A stretch of DNA of 64,000 nucleotides, from the IMG/VR virus record IMGVR_UViG_3300024999_001421, one strand, 5' to 3'. The notes under the pieces were generated by a model. That model was given only the letters and a program-made list of their open reading frames with translations. It was not told the origin of the DNA and searched no databases. The position numbers and the translations under genes were made by a program. Shown here piece by piece: positions 30,527 through 30,876 of this stretch. The DNA comes from a virus. Positions within the stretch are counted from its first letter, which is position 1. The number at the start of each line of letters is the position of its first letter.

Positions 30527-30682
30527 TATATCACGCCCCTATAAAATTATTAGAATAATTTTATTATATACTGAAAAAAAGCTATTGACAAGGTGAGGAT
30601 ATACGGTTATACTTCAAGTATGGATTGGCAAAGATTGCACATTGAAGAAACATACATATAAACTTCTATGGAGGTATGTAAA

Positions 30683-30706
30683 ATGGTAAAATGTAGAAGC
30701 GACTGA
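30683..30706 (+). CDS. Minigene MVKCRSD
   Basis: GGAGGT RBS; first RBS-led ORF after TTGACA-N17-TATACT at ~30586. Confidence 0.5.
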   Translation: MVKCRSD

Positions 30707-30747
30707 AACCTGCCAGTTAGTTAGAAAAAATAACCGGGGGCGGGAAA

Positions 30748-30771
30748 ATGATTAAATGTAGGAGCGATTGA
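30748..30771 (+). CDS. Minigene MIKCRSD
   Basis: G-rich RBS; differs from the first minigene by synonymous changes plus V>I. Confidence 0.5.
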   Translation: MIKCRSD

Positions 30772-30876
30772 GCAACCAAAGATCATACACAAACTAAATT
30801 CTACGAAGGAGGCAGAAGATAGCATGGTAGTACGGAGCGCATATATCATAGCAACTAACTTGAGAGGTTGACGCTT

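Follow-up and report, generated by a model that had tools for sequence, protein, structure and literature searches.

Tandem minigenes at the start of an early operon

The window analyzed here is a 64,000-nucleotide (nt) stretch of viral DNA from IMG/VR virus record IMGVR_UViG_3300024999_001421, and the elements under study are two tandem 24-nt open reading frames (ORFs) that encode the heptapeptides MVKCRSD (minigene 1) and MIKCRSD (minigene 2). As shown in Table 1, the two minigenes lie downstream of a rightward promoter and are followed by a third small ORF, called ORF3, and by a gene for a Com-like zinc-ribbon protein, called com. The Shine-Dalgarno (SD) sequences of minigene 1, minigene 2 and ORF3 are referred to as SD1, SD2 and SD3. 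With the transcript from the rightward promoter predicted to start near 30620, three SD-led small ORFs precede the first sizeable gene. An earlier note on this DNA had described the promoter, the two SD-led 24-nt ORFs, the third ORF and the Com-like gene, and its coordinates and sequence statements were all correct as read from the sequence. It had also spoken of a lytic operon. The minigenes do lead an operon, but the gene content is that of an early replication and recombination operon.

The two minigene copies form a 27-nt direct repeat with 85% identity, 65 nt apart, and differ at four bases. These differences are synonymous (AGA/AGG and GAC/GAT) or conservative (GTA/ATT, Val/Ile), which confirms in the sequence what the earlier note had said of them. 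Within the window alone, the repeat exceeds chance only slightly: the expected number of degenerate-motif matches is 0.21, and two such matches arose in 2 of 100 shuffles. A six-frame search of the window found no other ORF ending in C-R-S-D/Y. AGA and AGG are the commonest Arg codons in the phage, and the long ORFs of the window (n = 68) end in TAA (31), TGA (23) or TAG (14). Two other frames at the locus were tried and rejected. The internal ATG-TAG start-stop inside the window minigenes is not kept in relatives, and the antisense ORF at 30721-30885, whose first codon positions are the wobble positions of the plus strand, is not conserved as a protein.

Table 1. Positions of the minigenes and of the surrounding features in the window.
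Feature	Position	Strand	Remarks
Minigene 1	30683-30706	+	ATG GTA AAA TGT AGA AGC GAC TGA (MVKCRSD-stop); SD sequence GGAGG at 30670-30674, 8 nt before the ATG
Minigene 2	30748-30771	+	ATG ATT AAA TGT AGG AGC GAT TGA (MIKCRSD-stop); preceded by the G-run GGGGGCGGG at 30736-30744
ORF3	30824-30871	+	15 codons, MVVRSAYIIATNLRG; behind SD3, GAAGGAGG, at 30805-30812
com	30877-31050	+	Com-like zinc-ribbon gene, 57 amino acids; PF10122, E 4.7e-9
Terminator	31033-31104	+	Hairpin and T-run; -30.9 kcal/mol, z -3.9
Predicted spacer hairpin	30709-30744	+	5′ arm CCTGCC 2 nt past the minigene 1 stop, 3′ arm GGCGGG in SD2; -12.0 kcal/mol
Rightward early promoter	30585-30613	+	TTGACA-17-TATACT; 11 of 12 consensus positions
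Small stem-loop	30628-30638	+	GCAA-AGA-TTGC; near the predicted transcript 5′ end; from the consensus fold
A/C-rich leader motif	30650-30674	+	ACATACATAnAAAC, then SD1 GGAGG (30670-30674); invariant alignment columns
AbrB/MazE-like gene	31117-31362	+	C-terminal CxxC...CxxC; first gene past the com terminator
CI-like Xre gene	29462-29842	minus	
Cro-like Xre gene	30049-30288		
Ribbon-helix-helix (RHH) gene	30359-30526	minus	Pfam matches; leftward promoter at 30591-30563

Conservation of the minigene peptides among relatives

Searches with the neighboring AbrB-like and Com-like proteins, a choice that introduces no bias regarding the minigenes, retrieved most of the relatives from groundwater and sediment metagenomes. 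Three lineages (L238, L251 and L285) came instead from a peptide-pattern scan of JGI metagenomes, and one IMG/VR relative, the 72.3-kb contig L015, was recovered by a scan with the back-translated MxKCRSD-TGA; the remaining matches of that scan fell in an out-of-frame stretch of one conserved gene. A small number of related studies of groundwater and sediment supplied all of the relatives, and the lineages, nine in all and listed in Table 2, are related to each other. The exact-motif scan of IMG/VR gave 14 matches, all within unrelated coding sequence, and the motif scan of genome contigs gave chance matches only among the at least 120 matches listed, a result that is uninformative on hosts. 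The isolate phage collection gave no match, either by blastn with 30300-31400 or by tblastn with one large ORF. Neither minigenes of this type nor such a repeat were found at 79 Com-like loci that are more distant, where the region upstream of the Com-like gene was examined. A contig with MYQRCRSY (L239) and other single pattern matches were rejected as coding or unrelated contexts. On the 153-kb contig Ga0209318_1000051, the leader occurs twice (L276 and L292); because the two occurrences lie ~72 kb apart, which matches the 72.3-kb IMG/VR contig, this contig is read as a ~2.1-fold concatemer of a circular or terminally redundant genome.

Table 2. Minigene products in the nine lineages; start codons other than ATG are given in brackets.
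Lineage	Copy 1	Copy 2	Remarks
Window type	MVKCRSD	MIKCRSD	
L015	MVKCRSD	(GTG)IKCRSD	
L106	MVKCRSD	MVRCRSY	Different promoter and immunity genes
L238	MIKCRSD	MARCRSD	
L251	MVKCRSD	MARCRSD	
L285/L304	MVKCRSD	MIRCRSD	
L303	MAKCRSD	MARCRSD	
L302	(TTG)VKCRSD	(TTG)EKCRSD	Flanks most diverged
L110	(TTG)SFRCRSD		Single 8-codon gene; com replaced by another CxxC...CxxC ORF

The pattern M-x-[K/R]-C-R-S-[D/Y]-TGA is kept in all nine lineages. The five-codon core occurs in ten distinct DNA versions over these lineages, and they encode KCRSD, RCRSD or RCRSY only. Within the Cys-Arg-Ser core, the synonymous one-base variants are all present (TGC, AGG, CGA and AGT; 4 of 4), while none of the 23 non-synonymous variants is, and the four synonymous variants are all already found in the minigene-unbiased set. 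For 4 to 6 substitution events, the probability of this pattern is ~5e-4 to 1e-5 under uniform substitution and 3e-3 to 2e-4 with transition bias. The start codons across the lineages are ATG, GTG and TTG only, each with an SD sequence, and the stops of the minigenes and of ORF3 are TGA in 19 of 19 cases, with TAA just one transition away. Variable alignment columns make up 21% and 38% of the two minigenes and 53-75% of the spacers.

The same signature is seen in L302, in which the leader and spacers have diverged from those of the window to the identity level of shuffled sequences (0.60 vs 0.58, 0.56 vs 0.48 and 0.44 vs 0.43). Here the five KCRSD codons of copy 2 all depart from those of the window, each at the third base and none with a change of residue, and copy 1 carries two synonymous differences. 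The chance of this synonymous pattern, from the arithmetic of the codon tables, is ~3e-5.

The constraint is uneven along the peptide. Residue 2 is free (V, I, A or E, and Ser-Phe in the 8-codon form), and the C-terminal five residues are fixed. Among the minigene 1 orthologs of eight lineages, changes are synonymous or at residue 2 only, and the minigene 2 orthologs read IKCRSD, VRCRSY, ARCRSD, IRCRSD or EKCRSD after the start. The copies stay distinct orthologs, with copy 1 usually carrying Lys, AGA and GAC and copy 2 usually carrying Arg, AGG and GAT, and both are therefore taken to be maintained. Because the relatives vary synonymously while the flanks diverge, our data indicate that both minigenes are very probably translated and selected as peptides. 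The earlier note had argued from peptide conservation to translation, and the relatives strongly support that argument; the outcome it had named as damaging, nucleotides conserved with the reading frame lost, is the opposite of what they show.

Leader architecture and a possible action in cis

The order of the array is minigene 1, a spacer of 38-41 nt, minigene 2, a spacer of 47-52 nt, ORF3 (14-15 codons), 5 nt, and com, the last gap separating the ORF3 TGA from the com ATG. The start-to-start spacing from minigene 1 to minigene 2 is 62-65 nt and is held even where the spacer is unalignable, and a role in cis is therefore indicated. ORF3 behaves differently from the minigenes. Its frame, its length and its end (...GGT TGA CGCyT ATG) are kept in all eight two-minigene lineages, while its middle residues vary freely, and it seems from this pattern that the act of translating ORF3 matters rather than the peptide.

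The minigenes are kept when their neighbors are exchanged. In L106 they are the same although the promoter and the immunity module differ, and in L110 the minigene is retained although the zinc-ribbon ORF differs from com. Since the neighbors are swapped and the minigene stays, a target in the host machinery, for example the ribosome, is more likely than a neighboring phage protein. For the same reason, the proposal in the earlier note that the peptides are ligands for the neighboring Xre proteins is unlikely, as L106 combines a different immunity and promoter module with the same minigenes. In the L110 type (270-470 of L110, and also L116, L264 and L282), com is replaced by an uncalled ORF of ~53-66 amino acids with CxxC...CxxC. 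This ORF has its own terminator downstream, and around that terminator lies a 14-bp long-range inverted repeat, CGCTCCCACTCAGC / GCTGAGTGGGAGCG, that extends into the start of the abrB-like gene.

In terms of RNA structure, the leader as a whole is A-rich, is no more stable than shuffled sequences (z 0.17) and has no covariation support. A scan of 29800-31600 against Rfam at E values up to 10 gave two chance-level matches only, and at the start of com there is just a weak hairpin that does not reach significance. The predicted hairpin between the minigenes pairs at least part of the SD2 region in all eight two-copy lineages and all five core bases in four of the eight. Its C-rich 5′ arm begins 2-9 nt after the minigene 1 stop, and its arms differ by lineage (CCUGCC/GGCGGG, AUCACC/GGUGAU and ACCUCC/GGAGGU). 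Gating of minigene 2 by this hairpin is plausible on the predicted folds.

The Com-like relatives are 77-100% identical, and the 5′ arm of the terminator consists of the final six codons and the stop of com. This terminator is kept with compensating changes in L015, L106, L251, L285 and L302; its arms are AGAGUACCAG/CUGGUACUCU in the window (31033-31104), AGAGUCCCAG/CUGGGAUUCU in L015 (3154-3228) and AGAGUCCCCG/CGGGGGCUCU in L302 (1657-1732). A ribosome finishing com, or the Com protein, could block terminator formation. Between the com terminator and the abrB-like gene, L290 (647-1183; the same in L251) carries a 178-amino-acid ORF with the HNH-like motif HINHNTLDNRMENLR, probably a homing endonuclease.

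The control region around the minigenes is of the temperate-phage type. The leftward promoter of the RHH gene also matches 11 of 12 consensus positions, and the two divergent promoters stand back to back with overlapping -35 elements. A perfect palindrome, ATATACCTTAAAAGGTATAT, occupies the promoter spacer of the Cro-like gene at 29946-29965, and related half-sites, GGATATACGGTTATAC, lie in the spacer of the minigene promoter (30597-30613); both are likely to be operators of one repressor. Of the leader elements, the small stem-loop at 30628-30638 is kept in five of the six lineages of the consensus fold, the exception being L106 with its different promoter region, and the A/C-rich motif is not present in the diverged relative L302, which has its own SD sequence. 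The duplicated CATACA...GGAGG leader before ORF3, to which the earlier note had drawn attention, is kept in three of the eight two-minigene lineages (window, L015 and L285) and is not a conserved part of the design. Downstream of the AbrB/MazE-like gene, the operon continues with genes for RecT, an SMC-like ATPase, a primase-helicase and a Spo0A_C protein. The last of these (42234-42584, 116 amino acids, same rightward operon) consists solely of the Spo0A C-terminal DNA-binding domain (PF08769, E 3.6e-19), which suggests a spore-forming host. Genes for tRNA-Asn(GTT) and tRNA-Thr(TGT) are located on the minus strand at 18215-18477.

The interpretation that we favor, with a probability of about 0.45 for the mechanism as a whole, is that the minigenes act in cis as sequence-specific leader peptides. 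The [K/R]CRS[D/Y] C-terminus would occupy the peptidyl-transferase center and the upper exit tunnel while UGA is in the A site, and the peptide would slow the release that depends on release factor 2 (RF2), possibly in response to a cellular cue or to a small molecule bound at the center. A ribosome dwelling in this way at the 5′ end of the early transcript would protect that end. On the minigene 1 stop, it would cover the 5′ arm of the hairpin, free SD2 and license minigene 2. The open SD3 would receive the next ribosomes, translation of com would be coupled to that of ORF3 over the 5-nt gap, and the number of ribosomes reaching ORF3 and com would be set by the dwelling ribosome. The level of com translation, or the Com protein, would then decide whether the terminator forms over the com stop, and this outcome would decide transcription into the abrB-like, recT and replication genes. 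The overall result would be a translation-state gate at the entry to the lytic and replication program.

Action at the peptidyl-transferase center fits because the C-terminus is conserved, the UGA and the spacing are fixed, and the minigenes are kept independently of the neighboring phage genes; a free residue 2 with a fixed C-terminal five would follow if the residues closest to the catalytic center matter. The earlier note had offered an arrest or attenuator peptide among its suggestions, for example one that senses Cys or Arg. An unproven arrest or leader type is indeed the best fit, but the sensing of Cys or Arg codon starvation is unlikely because each residue occurs once, Arg is encoded as AGA, AGG or CGA, and AGA and AGG are common in the phage. 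A bolder version, in which KCRSD-UGA is a new proline-free seven-residue arrest or slow-release module that reads the host translation state, with the tandem pair setting operon entry, is doubtful. Possible cues for such a module are RF2 activity, the thiol or redox state of the Cys, and a small molecule at the peptidyl-transferase center.

Several observations weigh against the leader-peptide mechanism or against the peptide selection on which it builds. Ten contigs of the L285/L304 lineage were listed, and in one of them, L310, copy 1 (~1309-1332) has ATA in place of AGA and reads MVKCISD. This Arg to Ile replacement is the sole non-conservative change seen in the Cys-Arg-Ser core, and it is either a rare variant or an error. 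Lineages L238, L251 and L285 were found by a pattern that requires the peptide, and only the second copy of each was counted. Neither Pro nor any other known arrest motif is present in the peptide. The SD2 hairpin does not go beyond composition-matched shuffles of the spacers (combined p 0.12, in lineages that are related), and the spacer between minigene 2 and ORF3 is unstructured (0 to -3.6 kcal/mol), with no relay step visible. Hairpin gating cannot be the universal function because the single-minigene L110 type has no comparable hairpin past its stop. Finally, if the host is a spore-forming Firmicute, as the Spo0A_C gene suggests, its ribosomes may, judging by work on Bacillus subtilis, not be closely coupled to RNA polymerase, and this would weaken the override of the terminator.

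Alternatives to the leader-peptide mechanism

The alternative that survives best, although it is itself unlikely, is that a free cytoplasmic heptapeptide (a hexapeptide after Met removal) binds a host or phage target, such as a sporulation or stress regulator, a peptidase or a transporter, or serves as a post-lysis signal to neighboring cells, with the two copies raising the dose. Such a product would account for the strong selection on five consecutive residues, the sole Cys included, for the persistence of the minigenes when the downstream context (L110 type) or the upstream regulators (L106) are replaced, and for the upkeep of both copies as distinct orthologs in eight lineages; the phage also has further mimics of host regulators in its AbrB-like and Spo0A_C genes. 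However, no receptor-type gene (TPR/RRNPP, AimR-like) is located nearby, the peptides have no signal sequence, and peptides this short are expected to be short-lived in the cytoplasm. A diffusible product also needs neither strict spacing nor an invariant TGA, and the free residue 2 and the length of 7 or 8 residues fit a C-terminal, ribosome-proximal role at least equally well.

It is improbable that the micro-ORFs provide generic ribosome loading, by which they would protect the leader from 5′ exonuclease or Rho and feed ORF3 and com, with the peptide being incidental. The poorly structured, A-rich leader, its three SD-led ORFs and the coupling of ORF3 to com would all suit this function, and ORF3 behaves in this way, with its frame and length kept and its residues free. 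The minigenes do not: in them every codon of KCRSD has changed synonymously and the peptide has stayed the same, in contrast to the freely varying ORF3 50 nt away, and generic loading also leaves the constant TGA stop unexplained.

A role like that of the lambda bar minigenes, which the earlier note had raised, is more improbable again as the selected function. According to this explanation, heavy translation of the minigenes causes peptidyl-tRNA-Asp to drop off and ties up the tRNA or peptidyl-tRNA hydrolase for host takeover. The length of 7-8 codons, the strong SD sequences, the 5′-terminal position on an early phage transcript and the last sense codon, which is Asp (GAC/GAT) in all copies except one (Tyr), fit this explanation, and in Escherichia coli, minigenes of 3-8 codons with AGA or AGG accumulate peptidyl-tRNA (PMC2490762). 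But what governs bar action, which is toxic when peptidyl-tRNA hydrolase is limiting, is the final codons together with the stop. No particular peptide is needed, so that the five-residue conservation is not accounted for. In addition, Arg is encoded as AGA, AGG or CGA, which are read by different tRNAs, with AGA and AGG being the commonest Arg codons of the phage, and the tRNAs of the phage are tRNA-Asn and tRNA-Thr, with no tRNA-Asp.

Recoding of the UGA, by read-through or as selenocysteine, is very improbable. It would extend minigene 1 to a 13-residue product, MVKCRSD-x-NLP[V/I][S/G], and the hairpin would serve the recoding. The frame after the UGA (30707-30724 in the window) does read N-L-P-V/I-S/G-stop in the window, L015, L106, L285 and L303, with third-base or conservative changes only and a second stop (TAG/TAA) at a fixed position, and the invariant TGA is followed within a few nt by the hairpin. 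In L238/L251, L302 and the L110 type, however, the extension is unrelated, so the downstream frame is not conserved across lineages, and the substitutions in the NLP extension fit the hairpin equally well. Minigene 2 has no hairpin and no conserved extension, an indel breaking the frame between the window and L285; there is no selenocysteine insertion sequence (SECIS) or other Rfam match, and TGA is an ordinary stop in this genome.

Least credible of all is a nucleic-acid site with accidental frames, either a repressor operator or an RNA site for the Com-like protein, which could call on the two direct repeats ~six helical turns apart directly downstream of the promoter and on the RNA-binding activity of the Mu Com protein, but which is at odds with variation that is three-periodic and synonymous, SD sequences and start codons that vary within functional alternatives only, an L302 core that differs at every third base, an antisense ORF that is not conserved, and 79 distant Com-like loci without the repeat.

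Comparison with known systems

In the literature searched, we found no earlier account of tandem, conserved genes for heptapeptides that lead the early operon of a phage. Genes of seven codons are invisible to gene callers and have rarely been shown to be under selection, and the comparative evidence in this case is unusually clean.

Some known systems share the setting of the minigenes but not their defining features. As in the com-mom operon of Mu (PF10122), a Com-family zinc-ribbon gene lies directly upstream of an RNA hairpin that controls the next gene, in Mu by blocking translation at the mom start; here, though, there is no mom-like gene, the next gene is AbrB-like, and the hairpin is a transcription terminator with a T-run. 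Arbitrium AimP, Phr and other RRNPP peptides are the peptide signals of phages and Firmicutes, and the minigenes are similar to them in encoding a product in the size range of the active peptide (5-10 residues) from a phage, near the control region for lysis and lysogeny. In contrast to these signals, the minigenes have 7-8 codons in total, with no precursor, signal sequence or processing, and the neighborhood contains no TPR-type receptor gene, the genes there being RHH, Xre-type helix-turn-helix, Com-like and AbrB-like only.

The lambda bar ORFs have 2-3 codons and no selected peptide. The likeness of the minigenes to bar and to synthetic toxic minigenes (PMC2490762) is that of tiny SD-led ORFs on an early phage transcript, both of which could release peptidyl-tRNA; the peptide is irrelevant in bar, whereas the phage leader keeps a five-residue peptide through synonymous change. 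Amino-acid attenuators, of which the Cys-responsive polycysteine short ORFs of mycobacteria are an example (10.1101/834739), also place a translated leader ORF upstream of a terminator-controlled operon. The minigenes differ from them in having single Cys and Arg codons, with the Arg codon differing between the copies, and in having no terminator within the leader and no antiterminator/terminator alternative that overlaps the minigenes.

The leader of cat-86 is reported to read MVKTD and that of cmlA MSTSKNAD, sequences that our literature search did not return. Stalling of the chloramphenicol type is favored by Ala, Ser or Thr in the penultimate position (10.1101/2021.06.17.448903). The phage peptide, with 7-8 residues, has an invariant penultimate Ser and a last residue that is Asp (once Tyr), with the stop in the A site. 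The resemblance is a lead only, as the A site in the chloramphenicol context holds a sense codon and the match is that of one residue, expected ~3 in 20 times by chance.

Overall, the comparison suggests that the minigenes resemble very short regulatory leader peptides most, as a likeness for which class membership cannot be claimed. Leader peptides of this general kind include TnaC and those of the erm and cat genes. Precedents with very short leader ORFs, in which release, peptide-bond formation or elongation is blocked and the downstream RNA is remodeled, are MsrDL (PMC10314930), PepNL, which acts at UGA with RF2 (PMC11890864), and ToiL (PMC12121999). The phage minigenes differ from such arrest leaders in having no known arrest motif or Pro, in their two tandem copies with an unconstrained third ORF, in standing before the early operon of a phage instead of a gene for resistance or metabolism, and in one lineage without the hairpin. 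They share with them an SD-led micro-ORF in the 5′ leader, peptide selection that is strongest at the C-terminus and a downstream terminator. With PepNL in particular they share a stop identity that is fixed as UGA. In eight of the nine lineages, a hairpin past the first stop is predicted that would pair with the next ribosome site, at a frequency not beyond that of composition-matched shuffles. Should the product act as a free peptide, it would represent a signal that dispenses with precursor, export and processing. Should it act on the ribosome, a new short motif would join the few known to work at a stop codon, and a temperate phage or phage-plasmid would gate its early program by sensing translation.

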